This document shows positions 212-20,000 of a DNA stretch of 20,000 nucleotides, piece after piece. Source of the stretch: an uncultured virus (IMG/VR IMGVR_UViG_3300023054_000005). Lineage: Duplodnaviria > Heunggongvirae > Uroviricota > Caudoviricetes. The first letter of the stretch is position 1, and each line of letters begins with the position of its first letter. A program made the position numbers and the translations under genes. The stretch is from the IMG/VR virus record IMGVR_UViG_3300023054_000005; one strand, written 5' to 3'. The notes beneath the pieces were generated by a model, which saw only the letters and a program-made list of their open reading frames with translations, was not told where the DNA came from and did not search any database.

Positions 212-1162
212 ATGAAACATTTAGAAGATACACCTTGGTTTATCTGTGATAGTGATGATGAAAATTATTGCGCTTACATGGACACAGACTCAGTATACAT
301 TAATGCTGAACCCCTATTAAACTTTTTATACCCCAATTTTGAAGGTTTAGAAGATAGTAAAAAAGATGATTTATTAGAGGGGGTAGCATTAGAATATCAA
401 GACATAATCACACACCAATATAACACTTTAGCTAAAGAATGTTTTAACGTACCTAATGGTGTAGTTAATAAACATAGATTAGAGATGAAAACAGAAGCTG
501 TTATCCGATCTGCATACTTTAGGGCAACTCGTCGTTATGCCCAATGGATTACTAAAAAGGAAGGTATAGCTAAGGAAGAATTAGAAATTAAGGGGTTGGA
601 ATTTATGAAAGCTAATTTCCCACCTATTTTAGGAGAATTTTTTAATGATATACTACACCAAGTACTTAAAGGTGGTGAAAAAATTGATATTCTAGATCAG
701 ATTAAAGTTTTTAAAAAACAAATTTTAGACGGTACAATCCCACTAGCAAAATTGGGAAACCCTACCTCAGTCAAAAAGCTAGAAAAATATTCAGGAAATA
801 CCCCCAGATCCGGTGAGATTTTCACGGAAATAAAAAAACGTGCACCAGCACCCGTTAGAGCAGCAATTCGCTATAATGATTTATTAAGACTGTGGCAGTT
901 GGATAGAACTTATAATTTAGTTACTATGTCTGATAAAGTTAAATGGATTTACTTAAAAGATAACCCATATAAAATAGAGGCATTAGCATTTTTTGATTAT
1001 GAAATCCCTGATAAAATCCAAAACTTTCTAACCCTTTATGCTAATAGACAAAGAGTCTTTGAAACTATCTTACTTAACAAATTAGAAGGATTCTTTTCAG
1101 ACCTTTCATGGGAACTTAACTTAAATCCTCACCTAAATGTGTTAAAATCCTTTGAGATATAA
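212..1162 (+). CDS. Family B DNA polymerase, C-terminal half (palm motif C plus thumb); split polymerase subunit
   Basis: YMDTDSVY at residues 22-29 matches PolB motif C (YGDTDS), followed by RRYA (KKRYA-like) and KGLE. No exonuclease, motif A or motif B in this ORF. Confidence 0.85.
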   Translation: MKHLEDTPWFICDSDDENYCAYMDTDSVYINAEPLLNFLYPNFEGLEDSKKDDLLEGVALEYQDIITHQYNTLAKECFNVPNGVVNKHRLEMKTEAVIRSAYFRATRRYAQWITKKEGIAKEELEIKGLEFMKANFPPILGEFFNDILHQVLKGGEKIDILDQIKVFKKQILDGTIPLAKLGNPTSVKKLEKYSGNTPRSGEIFTEIKKRAPAPVRAAIRYNDLLRLWQLDRTYNLVTMSDKVKWIYLKDNPYKIEALAFFDYEIPDKIQNFLTLYANRQRVFETILLNKLEGFFSDLSWELNLNPHLNVLKSFEI

Positions 1163-9839: not shown

Positions 9840-11110
9840 TGAGTAAACCAACATTTGTAATTTCCTCACCGATGGATACCTATAGTGGGTATGGTGCCCG
9901 ATCACGAGACATAATAAAAGCCATTATAGAAACAGATAAATATGATGTTAAATTAATGGCTCAAAGGTGGGGTTCTACTTCTTGGGGGTTTTGTGATGAC
10001 CATAAAGAATGGCAATTTTTACTTCAACACTTACTCCCTGAAAATCAATTGGTGTCACAACCCGAAATTTGGATGCAAATCACAATTCCAAATGAATTCC
10101 AACCTATAGGAAAATATAATATAGGTTGCACCGCAGGTATAGAAGCTACCATATGTAAGCATGAGTGGATAGAAGGGATGAATAAAATGGATATGAATTT
10201 GGTATCTTCTAATTTTTCTAAAAAGATATTACAAGAGGTATCGTATGCTAAAAAAGACCAAAAATCAAACCGAACATTAGGAGAAATCAAATTAAATAAA
10301 CATGTTGAAGTAGTATTTGAAGGTGCAAATCTAGACATCTATAAAACTTTAAAACCTACAGAAGTCACTAATATCAATTTAGATACAATCCCTGAAAAGT
10401 TTTGTTATTTGTTTGTAGGACATTGGATGCAAGGTAGTTTTGGGCATGATAGAAAAAATGTTTCGGTATTAGTAAAATCCTTTTATGAAACATTTAAAAA
10501 TAAAAAAAACACCCCCGCTTTAATATTAAAAACTTCTGTAGGAGTTGCTTCTTATATAAGCCGAGATGAAATTTTAAAACGTATAAAACAAATAAGAAAA
10601 ACGGTTAAATCCCATACTTTACCTAATATCTATGTTTTGAATGGGGAGTTTAATGACAGTGAAATGAATGAATTATATAACCACCCTAAGGTAAAATCTA
10701 TGGTAAGTTTTACTAAAGGTGAAGGATTTGGACGACCACTATTAGAATTCGGGTTATCAAACAAACCTATAATAGCCTCAGCATTTTCAGGTCAATTAGA
10801 TTTTTTACATCCAAGTTTTACATATTTAATTCCTGGAGTTTTGGAGAATGTCCATGATAGCGCCGCTAATGATTGGTTAATTAAAAAAGCAAAATGGTTT
10901 AAACCTGACAGTGGTCATATTGGTACATCGTTAAAGGATGTTTTTAATAATTACCAAAAATACAAAACTATGGGAATGCGTCAAGGGTCCCACGTACGTA
11001 ATAATTTTAGTTACGAGAAAATGAAAGAATTAGTTGAGAGTATTTTTGATAAAAATATTCCTGAATTTCCAAAACAAGTAGAATTAATATTACCCAAATT
11101 AAAAAAATAA
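9839..11110 (+). CDS. Glycosyltransferase, GT-B fold (GT4-like)
   Basis: SGYG, FLFVG-like YLFVG, DRKN and GEGFGRPLLEFGLSNKPII (EX7E motif). Confidence 0.9.
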   Translation: MSKPTFVISSPMDTYSGYGARSRDIIKAIIETDKYDVKLMAQRWGSTSWGFCDDHKEWQFLLQHLLPENQLVSQPEIWMQITIPNEFQPIGKYNIGCTAGIEATICKHEWIEGMNKMDMNLVSSNFSKKILQEVSYAKKDQKSNRTLGEIKLNKHVEVVFEGANLDIYKTLKPTEVTNINLDTIPEKFCYLFVGHWMQGSFGHDRKNVSVLVKSFYETFKNKKNTPALILKTSVGVASYISRDEILKRIKQIRKTVKSHTLPNIYVLNGEFNDSEMNELYNHPKVKSMVSFTKGEGFGRPLLEFGLSNKPIIASAFSGQLDFLHPSFTYLIPGVLENVHDSAANDWLIKKAKWFKPDSGHIGTSLKDVFNNYQKYKTMGMRQGSHVRNNFSYEKMKELVESIFDKNIPEFPKQVELILPKLKK

Positions 11111-16303: not shown

Positions 16304-16723
16304 ATGAAGAACTTACTTTGGTTAGACGATATTAGAAACCCTTTTATAAATGAAGAAGGTAAAGTACCAACAGATGCGGATGGTGGAGATTATAATATAA
16401 ATTGGGTTTTGAATTATGAACAGTTTGTAAAATGGATTGGAATATTTGGGTTACCTGATGCTATTTCTTTCGACCACGATTTAGCGGATGAGCATTATAC
16501 ACCTGAATATTTTTGGGAAGATTATGATGAAAGTAAAAAATTTCAAGAATGGCGTGGTGAGAGTTACAAGGAAAAAACAGGAATGGATTGTGCCCAATGG
16601 TTAGTAGATTATTGCATGGACAACCAGAAAAAATTACCCAGGATATTTATACACTCCGCAAACCCCGTTGGTGCAGATAATATAAAAGGGTTGCTGGATA
16701 ACTTTATTAAATATTGTAGTTAA
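16304..16723 (+). CDS. Cyclic-phosphate-processing receiver-like domain protein
   Basis: LWLDDIRNP, ISFDHDL, TGMDCAQWL and IHSANPVG motifs. Confidence 0.75.
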   Translation: MKNLLWLDDIRNPFINEEGKVPTDADGGDYNINWVLNYEQFVKWIGIFGLPDAISFDHDLADEHYTPEYFWEDYDESKKFQEWRGESYKEKTGMDCAQWLVDYCMDNQKKLPRIFIHSANPVGADNIKGLLDNFIKYCS

Positions 16724-16740
16724 AGTACCTTTTAAGGAAT

Positions 16741-16874
16741 ATATAAAAAACGTAAACGATGATTTATAAAATAAAATATAAATTTAGATTATACTTATTA
16801 GAACGTAAATTAATAATAACTAAACAACGGAAAGCGATAAGTAGTTTATTTTCTTTGTGCGTTGTTGTGAAATT
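16741..16874. repeat. Degenerate attC-like element A
   Basis: Right arm gtttattttctttgtgc-gtt-GTTgtgaaatt; weak left arm atataaaaaacgtaaac with no AAC core. Confidence 0.4.
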
Positions 16875-16878
16875 TTAA
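16759..16878 (+). CDS. Micro-ORF reading through element A right arm
   Basis: 39 aa MIYKIK...SLFSLCVVVKF. Confidence 0.35.
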   Translation: MIYKIKYKFRLYLLERKLIITKQRKAISSLFSLCVVVKF

Positions 16879-16882
16879 ACAG

Positions 16883-17026
16883 ATGAAAGGATTTACAGGA
16901 TTTAAATGGTGGGAGCAAGAAAACCCAGCTTATAGGAAAGCTTGCAGAAGACAAGCCTCTAAAGAATTAATAGAATTAAAAGGACAATACGATTACTTTA
17001 TTAAAAAAACAGTAAGTAAGGTTTAA
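16883..17026 (+). CDS. Micro-ORF
   Basis: 47 aa MKGFTGFKWWEQENPAYRKAC...; stop abuts element B. Confidence 0.55.
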   Translation: MKGFTGFKWWEQENPAYRKACRRQASKELIELKGQYDYFIKKTVSKV

Positions 17027-17147
17027 TTTTTTACAAAGCATTGTGTATGCCTAGTAGCGTATAAATAGAAACAAATATTAATTAATAAATAAAACTTATA
17101 AAAATGACTAAAGAAACAAGAACTTTTATTTGGGGAATGACGCTACT
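17025..17147. repeat. Degenerate attC-like element B
   Basis: Left arm aattttttacAAAgcattgtgtatgcctagtagcgt (AAC changed to AAA); only acgctact (17140-17147) of the right arm remains complementary. Confidence 0.5.
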
Positions 17148-17292
17148 TCTTGTATGCGGAATAGGATTAGCATTACATATTGTTGATTTTATAAACGGAA
17201 CATTTGAATATGGATGGAATTGGTTATTATTTGCAGGGTGTGCGTTTGGCAGCATACAAGGAGGTGTTAAAATAACACAGACCACCGATTAA
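17104..17292 (+). CDS. Small two-TM membrane protein
   Basis: 62 aa with two hydrophobic stretches. Confidence 0.7.
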   Translation: MTKETRTFIWGMTLLLVCGIGLALHIVDFINGTFEYGWNWLLFAGCAFGSIQGGVKITQTTD

Positions 17293-17427
17293 TTGCATAT
17301 AACTTATGCGTGTATAGTTTGTTAACTATGTGATTAATAAAAGTACACTATAAAAATAGATTTGGTAGATTGATGTTAATTTAGTAAATTTGTTAATAAA
17401 TTATACACGCTGTTGGTTGCAGTTATT
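17291..17427. repeat. attC-like element C
   Basis: AAC 17301; gcgtgtatagtttgttaac pairs with gttaataaattatacacgc (17/19, both mismatches G.T); GTT 17412. Confidence 0.85.
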
Positions 17428-17472
17428 TTATAAAACCCCATTAATTTTATTTAAAATTAAAATACATAATAT

Positions 17473-17601
17473 ATGAACACAAACGGAGATAAGTTTTTTA
17501 TTTTAACCAACCCTATATTTTGGGTGTATTTTTTAATTATGACCATCTACTACTTAATAGATATGCTAAATATTTTTGATAAAAAACAAAACCAGAACTA
17601 A
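17473..17601 (+). CDS. Micro-ORF, single TM
   Basis: 42 aa MNTNGDKFFILTNPIFWVYFLIMTIYYLIDML..., TAATG-coupled to ORF 17601. Confidence 0.55.
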   Translation: MNTNGDKFFILTNPIFWVYFLIMTIYYLIDMLNIFDKKQNQN

Positions 17602-17822
17602 TGATAAAATGTGATAAAGGATGGCATAGTGGTGAATGCTGTTGTAATTGTAAAAACCAAATTGAGTTATTTAAACATCCTTGGAATAAGATAAACCAAG
17701 GAGCTTCTAATGAAGCTACTAATATGTTTGCTTGTATAGTGGAACACGATTGTAATAAAACAAATAAAGGAGTTATATTTGAAAATAAACATGGTCTTTG
17801 TGAAATGCATTGCGGTAAATAA
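17601..17822 (+). CDS. Cys-rich small protein
   Basis: 73 aa with CCCNC...C...C...CEMHC. Confidence 0.65.
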   Translation: MIKCDKGWHSGECCCNCKNQIELFKHPWNKINQGASNEATNMFACIVEHDCNKTNKGVIFENKHGLCEMHCGK

Positions 17823-17879
17823 AATGAATAAAAAAATTAAAATTAAAAGCTATTTTAAATAAGTATATATTAAAAAAAA

Positions 17880-18089
17880 ATGATAAATAATCTAGTAGTA
17901 AAACACAATAATGATAATGAAAATTTTAGAATTTTTGTTAATCACGGTAGTTATACTTATTCAGCAGAATATAATTTAATTGATTTATTTGATAATAAAA
18001 AATACATATTTAATTGTCAATCCATAAAAGAATTGTCTGACAAAGAAATAAAAGAAAGAATAATTAGTTATCATTTAGACACGATATAG
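17880..18089 (+). CDS. Hypothetical protein
   Basis: 69 aa with A-rich leader, followed by a terminator. Confidence 0.55.
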   Translation: MINNLVVKHNNDNENFRIFVNHGSYTYSAEYNLIDLFDNKKYIFNCQSIKELSDKEIKERIISYHLDTI

Positions 18090-18112
18090 GCCGTAATATA
18101 TGTGGCCTTTTT
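18088..18112 (+). terminator. Rho-independent terminator
   Basis: aggccgta-atata-tgtggcct followed by tttt. Confidence 0.6.
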
Positions 18113-18114
18113 AC

Positions 18115-18263
18115 AATAATGACTGCCAACGTATTTGTGTATAAAATGTACGAGTAAAAATAAATAGAATTTAATATTAATAATTAAAATAAGTAAAGAT
18201 GAAAAAAGTAAATTTAAACAGAATTAGTAAGTATTTTTTATACACGTTGTTGGTTGTAGTCTT
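18115..18263. repeat. attC-like element D
   Basis: AAC 18128; gtgtataaaatgtac / gtattttttatacac (13/15); GTT 18249. Confidence 0.85.
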
Positions 18264-18498
18264 ATTTACGGGATGTGCCGATGTCTCTAATATAGAAGCG
18301 TGTACCACAGTTGCTCCTTATGGATTTTGGGGAGGACTTTGGCACGGAATGATTGCACCATTTGCATGGATAGGTAGTTTGTTTAGTAGCGATATAGCAA
18401 TATATGCTGTAAATAATAACGGAGGTTGGTATGACTTCGGATTTATATTAGGTATAGGCGCGTTAAGCAGTAGCTCTACAAGTGCAGCAAAAAGATAG
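18199..18498 (+). CDS. Putative lipoprotein / membrane protein
   Basis: Signal peptide with lipobox FTG-C; GFWGGLWHG...NNGGWYDFGF. Confidence 0.8.
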   Translation: MKKVNLNRISKYFLYTLLVVVLFTGCADVSNIEACTTVAPYGFWGGLWHGMIAPFAWIGSLFSSDIAIYAVNNNGGWYDFGFILGIGALSSSSTSAAKR

Positions 18499-18503
18499 TA
18501 AAT

Positions 18504-18651
18504 AATATTACTTACAACGTACCCTTTTATTGCATTTTGCGTAAATTAATAATTAGTAAATAAATATAACATAAATGATAGAATATAAACAATTTAGTAA
18601 AAAAGTAAATAAAAAGCAATTTGTTATAAAAGATGTTGGCATTTGTTTTTT
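18504..18651. repeat. attC-like element E
   Basis: AAC 18516; cttttattgcattttgc / gcaatttgttataaaag (13/17); GTT 18635. Confidence 0.75.
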
Positions 18652-18721
18652 TGATACTAAATTTACTTTTTTACTATTAATAGGCTTTTTATTATTAATA
18701 ATAATCTTTAATTATCTATAA
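18575..18721 (+). CDS. Micro-ORF with C-terminal TM
   Basis: 48 aa MIEYKQ...QFVIKDVGICFF...LLLIGFLLLIIIFNYL. Confidence 0.55.
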   Translation: MIEYKQFSKKVNKKQFVIKDVGICFFDTKFTFLLLIGFLLLIIIFNYL

Positions 18722-18723
18722 AT

Positions 18724-18883
18724 AAAAAATAACTACCAACGAATTGTATAAGGTACGTTGCGACCTTGAATTAAGCAACAAAACTAATTAATAGATAAAA
18801 AATGAGTTTGATTAGTAGGTTGTTTAGTAAAAAGAAAGTAAAGAAAAAATGCTTTATATACGGTGTTGTTGAATCGTTTTATT
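18724..18883. repeat. attC-like element F
   Basis: AAC 18738; tgtataaggta / tgctttatata (paired with G.T wobbles); GTT 18865. Confidence 0.7.
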
Positions 18884-18969
18884 GTTATGACCACAAGAAC
18901 CCACATTATGAAAGCACTTGCCAAAGACAATGCGAGGCTTGTAATTTAATGGATGGAACTAAACAATAA
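18802..18969 (+). CDS. Micro-ORF, Cys-rich
   Basis: 55 aa MSLISRLF...CFIYGVVESFYC...CQRQCEAC.... Confidence 0.6.
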   Translation: MSLISRLFSKKKVKKKCFIYGVVESFYCYDHKNPHYESTCQRQCEACNLMDGTKQ

Positions 18970-19112
18970 TATGGTTTACAACGCATTGTATAAGAAATGT
19001 TGCGTTTAATTATAGTGAAATTAATAAATAAAATCATAAATTATGTTTAAAGAATTAGATTATAAAAATGGAGAAAGTAGCAATTTTTTTTATACGTTGT
19101 TATTTGAAGTGC
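18965..19112. repeat. attC-like element G
   Basis: AAC 18980; gtataagaaatgttgc / gcaattttttttatac (13/16); GTT 19099. Confidence 0.8.
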
Positions 19113-19282
19113 GTGATAAGTACAGACAATTATTTATAAGCATTGACGCTGAAGAAGCACAAAAGAGAGGTTTTAGATTTGTAACAAACATTTACGGCGA
19201 TAGAATAAACCAATTAAATTGCAGAAGCCTATGGATAGACCATAAAAACCGAACGTGGCGAGTAGAGCAATTAAACATTTAG
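19043..19282 (+). CDS. Hypothetical protein
   Basis: 79 aa; starts inside element G. Confidence 0.7.
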   Translation: MFKELDYKNGESSNFFYTLLFEVRDKYRQLFISIDAEEAQKRGFRFVTNIYGDRINQLNCRSLWIDHKNRTWRVEQLNI

Positions 19283-19426
19283 CATTGCATATAACGTATT
19301 TGTGTATGTAGCGTTGCGAGTAGATAAACAATAATTTTTAATAAGTAATAAACTAAATAAAATGGATAAAAGTAAAGACCTAGAAACAGAACAGCAATGT
19401 GATATACACGTTGTTAGCATTAGTAT
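19282..19426. repeat. attC-like element H
   Basis: AAC 19293; gtgtatgtagcgttgc / gcaatgtgatatacac (12/16 plus 3 G.T); GTT 19413. Confidence 0.85.
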
Positions 19427-19562
19427 GGCTGATAAAGCACAAATGATAAATGCATTAATTAACACAATGGATATATGTAAAAACAAACTTGGGGGTTATC
19501 ATAGCATTAGGGATGGCGCACGTGAAAAACTGGAAGGATTAATTAAATCAATTGATATTTAA
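19362..19562 (+). CDS. Hypothetical protein
   Basis: 66 aa; starts inside element H. Confidence 0.7.
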   Translation: MDKSKDLETEQQCDIHVVSISMADKAQMINALINTMDICKNKLGGYHSIRDGAREKLEGLIKSIDI

Positions 19563-19834
19563 TATTACTGCTAACGGTTTATGTATGGGTAGTTTTTGCC
19601 CGATTTAATTAAAATAAAATAAATTATGAAAGAGATAGAACAATTATTTGGAGGTGCAAATGCTGAAGAGCAAAACATATTACTGCACATAATAAAAGAG
19701 CGAGGTTATGAGTTTTTTGAGAAAACACCTAAAACAACTATGACTATTCGTTTGCTTGAAGATTTGCACGAACTTGGTTATAAGATAGTGAAGCAAGGGC
19801 AATAATTACCTATACACGTTGTTGTGGTGTCGTT
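19562..19834. repeat. attC-like element I (enlarged loop)
   Basis: AAC 19573; gtatgggtagtttttgccc / gggcaataattacctatac (16/19); GTT 19821. Confidence 0.8.
19626..19805 (+). CDS. Hypothetical protein lying within element I; not in ORF track
   Basis: 59 aa MKEIEQLFGGANAEEQ...LHELGYKIVKQGQ. Confidence 0.7.
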   Translation: MKEIEQLFGGANAEEQNILLHIIKERGYEFFEKTPKTTMTIRLLEDLHELGYKIVKQGQ

Positions 19835-19836
19835 TT

Positions 19837-19980
19837 AATGCACTACAACTTATGCGTATAAACATTGTTACGGATAAATAAACTAAAACTTAATTATGAG
19901 ACCAGTAGATTTTAAAGATGAATTTTATTCTAGAAACCCATTAAGCAGTAATAATGATTTATACGTTGTTGTTACAAGTG
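19837..19980. repeat. attC-like element J
   Basis: AAC 19847; cgtataaacattgttac / gtaataatgatttatacg (one G.T, one bulged A); GTT 19968. Confidence 0.8.
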
Positions 19981-20000
19981 ATTTTTTGCAAACAGACCAA
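19896..20000 (+). CDS. Micro-ORF, 3'-truncated by window
   Basis: MRPVDFKDEFYSRNPLSSNNDLYVVVTSDFLQTDQ... open to the window end. Confidence 0.55.
   Translation, partial: MRPVDFKDEFYSRNPLSSNNDLYVVVTSDFLQTDQ

Follow-up and report, generated by a model that had tools for sequence, protein, structure and literature searches.

The 20,000-nt window analysed here corresponds to part of the minus strand in a single-contig virus record of 138,667 bp (IMGVR_UViG_3300023054_000005), and the end of the window is occupied by an array of long imperfect palindromes, bounded by AAC and GTT, that alternate with very small genes. Pfam searches of the 129 open reading frames (ORFs) of at least 90 aa identify the virus as a distant T4-like myovirus, which encodes a gp20-type portal, a gp21-type prohead protease, a T4-type terminase and gp25, together with a clamp loader, a gp32-like protein, a UvsX/RecA-like protein, a family-B polymerase and GroEL/ES; it also has a 7-deazaguanine gene set and endonucleases of the GIY-YIG and HNH types. 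Nearly all long ORFs of the record (128 of 130) lie on the same strand, and the closest named relatives of individual genes belong to Cellulophaga phages. The genes separated by the palindromic elements, ORFans of 40-105 aa, occupy 16.8-21.4 kb and run 1.4 kb past the window end; coordinates above 20000 continue the numbering of the window but lie outside it. Elements K (20069-20194), L (20503-20697) and M (20941-21065) and an extra AAC core at 21409 are found there, and the array as a whole contains at least 11 intact sites and two decayed copies (A and B). The reading that we favour, with a probability of about 0.6, is that the array belongs to a Bacteroidota integron-like (rAID-1-like) system, lacks an integrase and is oriented in reverse, and that its cassettes are exchanged by a recombinase of the host.

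A mechanical scan with the pattern AAC-spacer-stem...stem-spacer-GTT recovered exactly the spans that a first-pass annotation of the sequence had listed for elements C to J (114, 124, 122, 130, 122, 123, 251 and 124 nt), and the AAC-to-AAC steps of 827, 388, 222, 242, 313, 280 and 274 nt agree with the units of 222-388 nt, plus one of 827 nt, given in that annotation. A 14-mer of the right arm has 11 matches with at most three mismatches, against 2.19 expected, a number reached in none of 200 shuffles. The long-range stem that joins AAC to GTT appears in the unconstrained RNA folds of nine out of nine elements, and the arms pair best within their own element, as had also been proposed, with a mean of -22.1 kcal/mol for cognate pairs, -14.7 for non-cognate pairs and -8.0 for random segment pairs. 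In an alignment of the nine elements 91.0% of the cells are paired against 79.7% in shuffles (0/500 reach this value), and half of the consensus pairs (10 of 20) have changes on both sides, again in 0/500 shuffles. The 20 pairs of the RNAalifold consensus are arranged in three layers, namely an outer AAC/GTT stem, an asymmetric unpaired spacer, and an inner plus a third stem; the 5' part of the spacer has 4-6 nt and the 3' part 0-3 nt, in keeping with the longer left spacer described earlier. Within the outer stem YAAC is paired to GTTR, with a conserved G.T adjacent, while towards the centre of a site the asymmetric spacer is followed by the covarying inner stem, sometimes by the third stem, and by a variable loop of 8 to about 200 nt. 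The sites are bounded by AAC and GTT, their structure is conserved and their arms covary; as in attC, each is an imperfect palindrome in which a spacer stays unpaired and the terminal structure varies.

A covariance model built solely from nine elements of this phage (R1) was run over the whole 138,667-bp record and returned, at E < 0.05, the nine seeds together with B (E 0.002) and L (E 0.02), all 11 matches being located on the gene strand of a single 4.1-kb stretch. Searches against Rfam gave only four matches (E 1.8-9.9), all well under the gathering scores. The gene strand is the better-pairing strand in 11 of 11 elements of the phage, summing to -242.9 kcal/mol compared with -153.0 on the complement; random segment pairs are unbiased (strand difference 0.07 +/- 3.6 kcal/mol). 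This asymmetry is visible in the seed alignment, which contains 30 G.U cells versus 3 A.C/C.A cells and in which several positions are conserved G.U pairs, including the pair beside AAC/GTT. The coordinates of the elements and of the genes between them are given in Table 1.

Table 1. Palindromic elements, cassette genes and hairpins at the end of the window.
Feature	Position	Strand	Remarks
A, decayed short hairpin, right-arm core kept	16818..16866	+	fold -11.8 kcal/mol, z -0.15
B, decayed, AAC and GTT cores gone, innermost stem retained	17030..17165	+	ATG 17104 enclosed
C, 114 nt, 19-bp inner stem	17301..17414	+	structured loop without ORF start
D, 124 nt	18128..18251	+	leader and ATG 18199 of lipoprotein-like ORF in loop
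E, 122 nt, second arm type (as L)	18516..18637	+	ATG 18575 enclosed
F, 130 nt	18738..18867	+	ATG 18802 enclosed
G, 122 nt	18980..19101	+	ATG 19043 enclosed
H, 123 nt	19293..19415	+	ATG 19362 enclosed
I, 251 nt	19573..19823	+	whole 59-aa ORF 19626-19805 enclosed
Inside-out hairpin (right arm of I, apex, left arm of J)	19811..19860	+	-19.2 kcal/mol, z -3.84, 0/200 shuffles
J, 124 nt	19847..19970	+	ATG 19896 enclosed
99-aa cassette ORF	18199..18498	+	lipobox signal peptide; phrog_30702 (function unknown); 73% nt identity to phi17:2/phi4:1
79-aa cassette ORF	19043..19282	+	83% nt identity to Nekkels_1 gp08
Five small ORFans	16883-17026, 17104-17292, 17473-17601, 17601-17822, 17880-18089	+	no Pfam or PHROG match
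More ORFan cassettes	18575-18721, 18802-18969, 19362-19562, 19626-19805, 19896-20015 (past window end)	+	
Terminator-like GC-rich hairpin and T run	18090-18113		between ORF 17880-18089 and D

Regarding the individual elements, A is not significant alone, given its z value (Table 1), and its region (16722-16878) is matched by the covariance model only at E 8.6; the inner hairpin of M is almost identical to A, and a 39-codon mini-ORF (16759-16878) crosses A and ends 2 nt before the ATG at 16883. B is matched by the model at 17023-17196 (E 0.0024), its long-range stem is present in the minimum-free-energy fold, and positions 17012-17119 have 90% identity to an intact element of another viral locus (L032). 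The fold of C reaches -42.4 kcal/mol (z -6.2), and the next ORF begins 59 nt past its GTT. In D the right arm corresponds to about codons 14-18 of an ORF whose N-terminus is colinear with gp185 of phi17:2, and in I the final codons of the enclosed ORF make up the innermost right stem. The hairpin that the right arm of I forms with the left arm of J shows compensatory changes in comparison with three other viral loci (L046, L116 and L042), and is an empty junction between two cassettes. The hairpin at 18090-18113 is the sole classical-looking terminator in the array.

The position of the genes relative to the sites is unusual in that the next gene starts inside a site. In D, E, F, G, H and J the ATG lies in the loop, 49-71 nt past AAC, and the ORF reads across the right arm at about codons 14-21; this arm begins 40-63 nt after the ATG, and the AU-rich loop holding the ATG measures about 77 nt. 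A whole small ORF is contained in the loops of I and L, while each of K and M has a mini-ORF whose start lies in the loop and which extends across the right arm to end at the start of the real gene. The mini-ORFs of K (20141-20233), M (21019-21078) and A have 19-39 codons and stop 2-15 nt before the real ATG, and they look like translational coupling or the remains of out-of-frame joints. Because the right arm is read in all three frames among the elements, it is a nucleotide signal and not a peptide motif. The profile of phrog_35589 (60 positions) matches the 79-aa protein encoded at 19043-19282 only from residue 31, past the right arm, and because the alignment begins there the other members seem to be without the N-terminus encoded by loop and right arm. 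The preceding genes had been described as stopping at or within about 6 nt of the left arm, which needs correction, given that the stops are found 9-18 nt before AAC (C, E-I, L and M), still inside the extended outer stem, and 39 and 54 nt before AAC for D and K, respectively. In five phage arrays considered together, all ORFs (33/33) are encoded on the folding strand.

Related phages had been expected to differ by whole units with breakpoints at AAC and GTT, and this is what the comparisons revealed, with homology ending at the cores and junctions at both of them. Among nine sequences, 16 of 31 distinct homology ends are at most 2 nt from a YAAC/GTTR edge, where 16.9% would be expected; the binomial p is about 1e-5, the ends not all being independent. 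The unit of M, from its AAC to the next AAC (475 nt, one complete gene), has 99.4% identity in another viral contig (L150), and element L (195 nt, with a 40-aa ORF) recurs at 95-99% identity over 197-216 nt in at least five flank contexts, the flanks diverging exactly at AAC and GTT(G). The 53-kb Cellulophaga phage Nekkels_1 is unrelated but has a counterpart of the ORF that starts in G (19043-19282), with homology that stops within the AAC of H; similarity between H and a further locus (L037) is limited to 19291-19415. The arms of I recur with 82-93% identity in L046 and L116, but the ORFs framed in the three sequences (59, 43 and 40 aa) are unalignable, sharing the last few codons because these form the innermost stem. 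Two proteins encoded in L149 and L150 possess the same 32 C-terminal residues and different N-termini (70 and 45 aa), joined at the right arm. Contigs from other metagenome runs break off at 18980, 19849/50, 19841 and 20502/20698; at G the contigs of two runs begin matching exactly at 18980, and at J a contig of run X18 ceases to match just after AAC. The contigs of four sequencing runs did not yield the whole array stretch in one piece, nor, at their low depth, any strand-changing joint, a result with no bearing on expression or inversion. An empty site for element L was sought by means of the L147 flank, and only the same contig was returned. A reading of the array as an inverton (DNA inversion) was discarded, given that no serine or tyrosine recombinase is encoded and that the G.T asymmetry speaks against a purely double-stranded repeat.

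The same family of sites occurs in other viruses. R1 gave 16 matches in 10 of 80 viral loci having the right-arm 14-mer and 22 matches in five other viral records (7, 5, 5, 3 and 2), including complete genomes of 65.6 kb and 34.6 kb, so that, by this model, the family is present in no fewer than 11 viral contigs besides the phage. The folding strand is likewise the more stable one in 26 of 27 elements taken from 11 other viral records. These counts underestimate the family, since a 195-nt member in phi17:2 (L001 7463-7660, gp189 region), with a stem of about 24 bp that includes two G.U pairs and encloses an ATG and about 45 codons, was missed owing to its long loop. Three forms are recurrent (compact, of about 50 nt; about 123 nt; and about 190-250 nt), and the size classes seen across the family are about 50, 90, 123 and 190-250 nt. 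The apex of the compact hairpins of about 50 nt is frequently one shared 10-mer, and an ATG is enclosed in about half of the expanded forms in other viruses. An all-versus-all blastp among six element-bearing viral records found no ORF common to three or more of them and few pairwise matches, and a blastn search with a compact element against named phages gave no match. In the virulent Polaribacter phage P12002L, R1 matches five sites, each of them on the gene strand. A cluster of attC sites lacking an integrase (CALIN), with two predicted attC sites, is reported in this phage by Qi et al. (2023, PMC9892861); the one named P12002L_attC1 in their primer table, which was called attC by HattCI, is a compact member of the present family with the shared apex 10-mer and comes in addition to the five, and a second compact copy was spotted by eye. 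According to section 3.4 and Table S3 of that paper, five of six phage sites were recombined by IntI1, and the sole failure was P12002L_attC1.

The absence of an integrase near the array, already pointed out in the first-pass annotation, extends to the whole 138.7-kb record, in which none of PF00589, PF00239 and PF01797 was found; likewise, no tyrosine or serine recombinase was found in two complete element-bearing phages (PF00589 absent from G003 and G004). A candidate partner was found instead in bacterial chromosomes. A pattern scan of 185,579 species genomes gave 11 loci, six of them in Bacteroidota metagenome-assembled genomes (MAGs), and five of these six are R1-positive; the loci in Paenibacillus, Syntrophaceae and Ruminococcaceae were not matched by R1. 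A Lishizhenia MAG (G007) has five sites in a 4.6-kb stretch flanked by housekeeping genes, and these sites separate cassettes encoding a ParDE pair, two HxlR, two ABM and one Rce1-like protein; this array ends at a gene for a 295-aa tyrosine recombinase, and a second array of 5-7 sites in the same MAG ends at a pseudogene copy of the recombinase. In another genome (G006) a site directly adjoins a homologue of the recombinase. On TIGR02249 the 295-aa protein scores 180.7 bits in two stretches, below the cut-off of 265, but it passes NF040815 (XerA / integron-integrase type) with 235 versus 220 bits, and its nearest solved relatives are XerA proteins, followed by IntI4. The IntI-like partner that had been postulated is thus replaced by a chromosomal, XerA-like enzyme below the integron-integrase cut-off, and the phage itself has no recombinase.

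Homologues of this recombinase are present in 129 of 301 sampled genomes of Flavobacteriales, often at contig ends. Twenty recombinase loci were chosen for their flanks and for a span of 41-62% identity; nine of them have at least one R1 match at E <= 0.05, and 19 of the 20 matches concerned are downstream of the recombinase on the opposite strand, the exception (L209) being on the wrong side. Most ORFs of six bacterial arrays (35 of 43) run antisense to the folding strand, and a site follows each ORF, as in integrons. Of 29 bacterial sites, 27 are nevertheless more stable on that strand, a figure to which the ascertainment by R1 applies. Since the better-folding strand is antisense to most of the ORFs, mRNA structure is not the selected trait in the bacteria. 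A single-stranded DNA recombination site is therefore the best account of the family, because in bacteria it is the non-mRNA strand that folds and because the sites hold a fixed position with respect to the recombinase.

With regard to known systems, an integron has beside its array an integrase, which is a tyrosine recombinase with an IntI-specific insertion. In integrons the strand that folds and recombines is antisense to the cassette ORFs and each ORF precedes its attC site. The phage array differs on both of the latter counts, as its ORFs lie on the folding ('bottom') strand and start in the loop of their own site. The two arms of an attC site also carry complementary versions of one core. 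For this core Qi et al. (2023, PMC9892861) give the consensus GTTRRRY, and neither it nor its complement is fitted by any of 11 left or 11 right arms of the phage, in which only the trinucleotides AAC and GTT are retained. The chromosomal partner of the sites, being Xer/XerA-like and not IntI, is a further difference from attC. On the other hand, the attC sites and phage CALINs presented in the same paper resemble the present case in their AAC/GTT palindromes, structural conservation, strand-biased folding, unpaired spacer and variable loop, and also in that rows of sites are placed among small genes of an integrase-less phage. The earlier proposal of an integron-like cassette array is consequently retained in part: the array, the covarying sites and the unit-wise differences stand, whereas the attC core consensus, IntI and the gene orientation do not. 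We do not class the array as a classical integron. In its workings it resembles an integron or CALIN, and its place is among the Bacteroidota cassette arrays that are associated with Xer.

Among the latter, rAID-1 of gut Bacteroidales has been described by Ross et al. (bioRxiv 10.1101/471110) as a 5' Xer-like tyrosine recombinase followed by co-directional low-GC genes, with intergenic repeats that the authors termed 'reminiscent of integrons'; their criterion for membership is a recombinase more than 44% identical to that of B. fragilis rAID-1. This geometry matches the Flavobacteriales loci (G007 twice, G006 and 9/20 loci), the architecture alone being compared. In the phage itself the arrangement of 5' recombinase, genes and sites is not found, and whereas rAID-1 resides in Bacteroidales chromosomes and carries immunity genes, the phage array is recombinase-less, has reversed genes, holds ORFans only and belongs to a lytic-type phage. 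The stem-loops termed PeSLs (PMC2839356, PMC4122927) also bound small ORFans in a plastic region of T4-like phages, their motifs mark the ends of indels and replacements between related phages without a dedicated recombinase, and their authors drew the comparison with integrons themselves. PeSLs consist of a compact terminator and a sigma-70 promoter and are wholly intergenic. Unlike these, the stems found here are long-range and strand-asymmetric, enclose the start and the N-terminal codons of genes, allow an in-frame joint inside genes, and belong to a site family tied to a tyrosine recombinase in the phylum of the hosts; moreover, promoters are unenriched, a T run follows 5 of 11 sites, six sites enclose an ATG and two enclose whole ORFs. 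No similarity to IS200/IS605 or REP/RAYT elements was apparent, as the Y1 (HUH) transposase domain PF01797 was absent from the five records searched (G000, G001, G003, G004 and G005) and no Y1-type domain occurs among the 129 phage ORFs.

The favoured reading can be put as a mechanism, the recombination part of which we offer conditionally. The phage array is turned round relative to its genes, which makes the folding strand the coding strand, and one AAC-to-AAC unit therefore holds one complete gene. Each unit comprises an AU-rich leader, the ATG and the first 14-21 codons in the loop, a translated right arm, and a stop codon at the base of the site that follows. During infection, a recombinase provided by the host would excise, insert or swap cassettes by acting on the folded strand of the phage DNA as it replicates, and the T4-type homologous recombination of the phage may contribute at the 20-nt arms. 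On the bottom strand of attC sites the crossover takes place in the 5' core. If the same were true here, a phage cassette would extend from the cut between AA and C of one site to the cut between AA and C of the next, comprising a whole gene plus its leader, which would explain why the ATG appears 'inside' a site and would be the same unit as that shared with L150. Breakpoints at the GTT core, including the in-frame joints, might arise from events on the other strand or from homologous recombination at the arms. As the sites are transcribed in sense in the phage, they must fold in mRNA as well, and they would probably also punctuate or insulate expression.

Several points weigh against this reading. 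No recombination event was directly observed, and the action of a host recombinase on the phage DNA is an assumption; the phage record is 85% complete by the CheckV estimate. Of the 20 recombinase loci 11 have no R1 match, and a tblastn comparison of 18 phage ORFs with 41 bacterial loci (521 kb) found no match. Part of the strand asymmetry of the elements found with R1 is ascertainment, because the model carries the G.U pattern of its seeds. Homologous recombination at arms of 15-21 nt would leave breakpoints of the same kind, since alignments stop where conservation stops, and the many breakpoints at the GTT core need a second route if, as in attC sites, the crossover occurs at the 5' core only. 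P12002L_attC1 is the only family member tested in print, and it failed with IntI1. Finally, T runs follow the right arm in 18 of 38 elements versus 14% of control windows. By source, such runs are found in 6/7 bacterial and 12/31 phage copies, and some bacterial copies have an A-run before the stem, resembling bidirectional terminators. The T runs would suit an RNA role akin to that of terminators, and together with the stops at the base of the stem they suggest that the sites also have a regulatory role.

A strictly regulatory account takes this further, holding that the elements are purely RNA-level stems at gene boundaries, acting like PeSLs as terminator, processing or insulator hairpins, that the exchange of modules is a by-product of homologous recombination, and that the likeness to the chromosomal sites reflects shared ancestry only. 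Several observations fit it: the folding strand of the phage is always the mRNA strand, the stops precede AAC by 9-18 nt in 8 of 10 cases, the ATG sits in its AU-rich loop ahead of the right arm, the T runs are in excess, and a UvsX-like, a gp32-like and other T4-type functions are encoded but no integrase. PeSLs moreover provide a published precedent for shuffling and mini-circles without a dedicated recombinase (PMC2839356, PMC4122927). We nevertheless consider this account rather unlikely, although it is the strongest competitor, in view of the constant side and strand of the sites relative to the tyrosine recombinase (19/20 matches), of the lack of any Rfam match above gathering scores, and of unrelated phages that have sites in common but no protein. 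Neither sigma-70-type promoter matches (31 versus 33.3 in shuffles, with a scan ill-suited to Bacteroidota) nor a candidate late-promoter-like box (29 on the gene strand versus 36, without genome-wide enrichment) is enriched, and no late sigma factor was recognised with PHROGs (59/129 ORFs at E <= 1e-8) or with Pfam (all 129). A version of this account in which the stems contain an internal late-type promoter had been considered as the main interpretation, and it was dropped because the box is unenriched, because no such sigma factor was recognised, and because the bacterial folding strand is antisense to the genes.

Less probable still is that the elements are selfish hairpin repeats, of the type of miniature inverted-repeat transposable elements (MITEs) or repetitive extragenic palindromes (REPs), spread by a single-strand transposase or by the cuts of a structure-specific nuclease, with the small ORFs as passengers. 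The behaviour of element L as a discrete AAC/GTT-bounded unit in at least five unrelated contexts, the existence of size classes and the copies in unrelated phages and bacterial chromosomes would be expected of such repeats. Their loops, however, are unconserved between copies of the same arm type, the five contexts of element L show no target-site duplication, no Y1 transposase is present in the five records searched, and the bacterial copies are not scattered but form ordered one-sided arrays beside a tyrosine recombinase. The possibility that we find hardest to sustain is a classical integron cassette array (CALIN) with attC sites recombined by a true IntI. It accommodates the attC-like architecture (AAC/GTT palindrome, unpaired spacer and variable terminal structure) and the HattCI call on the family member of P12002L reported by Qi et al. 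(2023, PMC9892861), but it conflicts with the core consensus (0/11 for each arm), with the XerA-like partner under the integron-integrase cut-off, with the reversed phage genes that start inside sites, and with the failure of IntI1 to recombine P12002L_attC1 recorded in that paper.

Some other features of the record deserve mention. Directly upstream of the array, a 139-aa ORF (16304-16723) encodes a cREC_REC (cyclic-phosphate processing receiver) domain; this ORF is found with 68-87% aa identity in nine other viral contigs with otherwise unrelated contexts, in several of which compact elements precede the gene and half-elements lie behind it. When synteny with these relatives was sought, only the cREC_REC gene was common, except in an identical contig (L004). 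An ORF-free stretch of about 500 nt, at 23200-23750 in window-style numbering (L003 ~250-800, minus strand), lies downstream of the small genes. A short direct repeat occurs in it several times, along with G-rich runs, and the stretch may have a regulatory function or be an origin. The 7-deazaguanine DNA-modification genes (FolE, QueD, QueE-like, QueC and DUF1599) lie in L018/L019, where the phage GroEL/GroES, an intein-split ribonucleotide reductase and two more homing-endonuclease-like ORFs are also encoded. A 266-aa ORF on the minus strand of L015 (7722-8519) has a Zeta_toxin/AAA_33 kinase-like domain (E 1.5e-18) and adjoins a DUF932 ORF. The window and the genome record show single-base differences at 10886, 11543 and 18657.

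Integrons have been considered nearly absent from Bacteroidota, in which, according to the report on IntegronFinder 2.0 (PMC9024848), only In0 elements had been found earlier and one complete integron is recorded, in Salinibacter. In searches for literature on repeats of Cellulophaga and other flavobacterial phages and on integrons of Flavobacteria, we found no description of this site family, of its reversed phage form or of in-frame swapping. Phage CALINs have hitherto been read as stray pieces of integrons, whereas the array described here connects to a system widespread in Flavobacteriales and is systematically inverted with respect to it, the site doubling as leader, start and N-terminal coding sequence. 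As a tentative and bolder suggestion, flavobacterial phages of marine and salt-lake habitats may possess a reversed integron-like system of their own, which would be worked by an Xer-like enzyme of the host on single-stranded replicating phage DNA and would transfer genes between unrelated phages. The N-termini would be swapped in frame by events at the second core, located within the coding sequence, and small phage proteins would in this way undergo a kind of site-directed exon-shuffling. Should a recombinase indeed act on these sites, it would provide a mechanism for the turnover of ORFans and for the mosaicism of the 'hyperplastic' regions of phage genomes, a route of gene flow between unrelated phages with a common host group, and a natural case of in-frame module swapping at a structured site.

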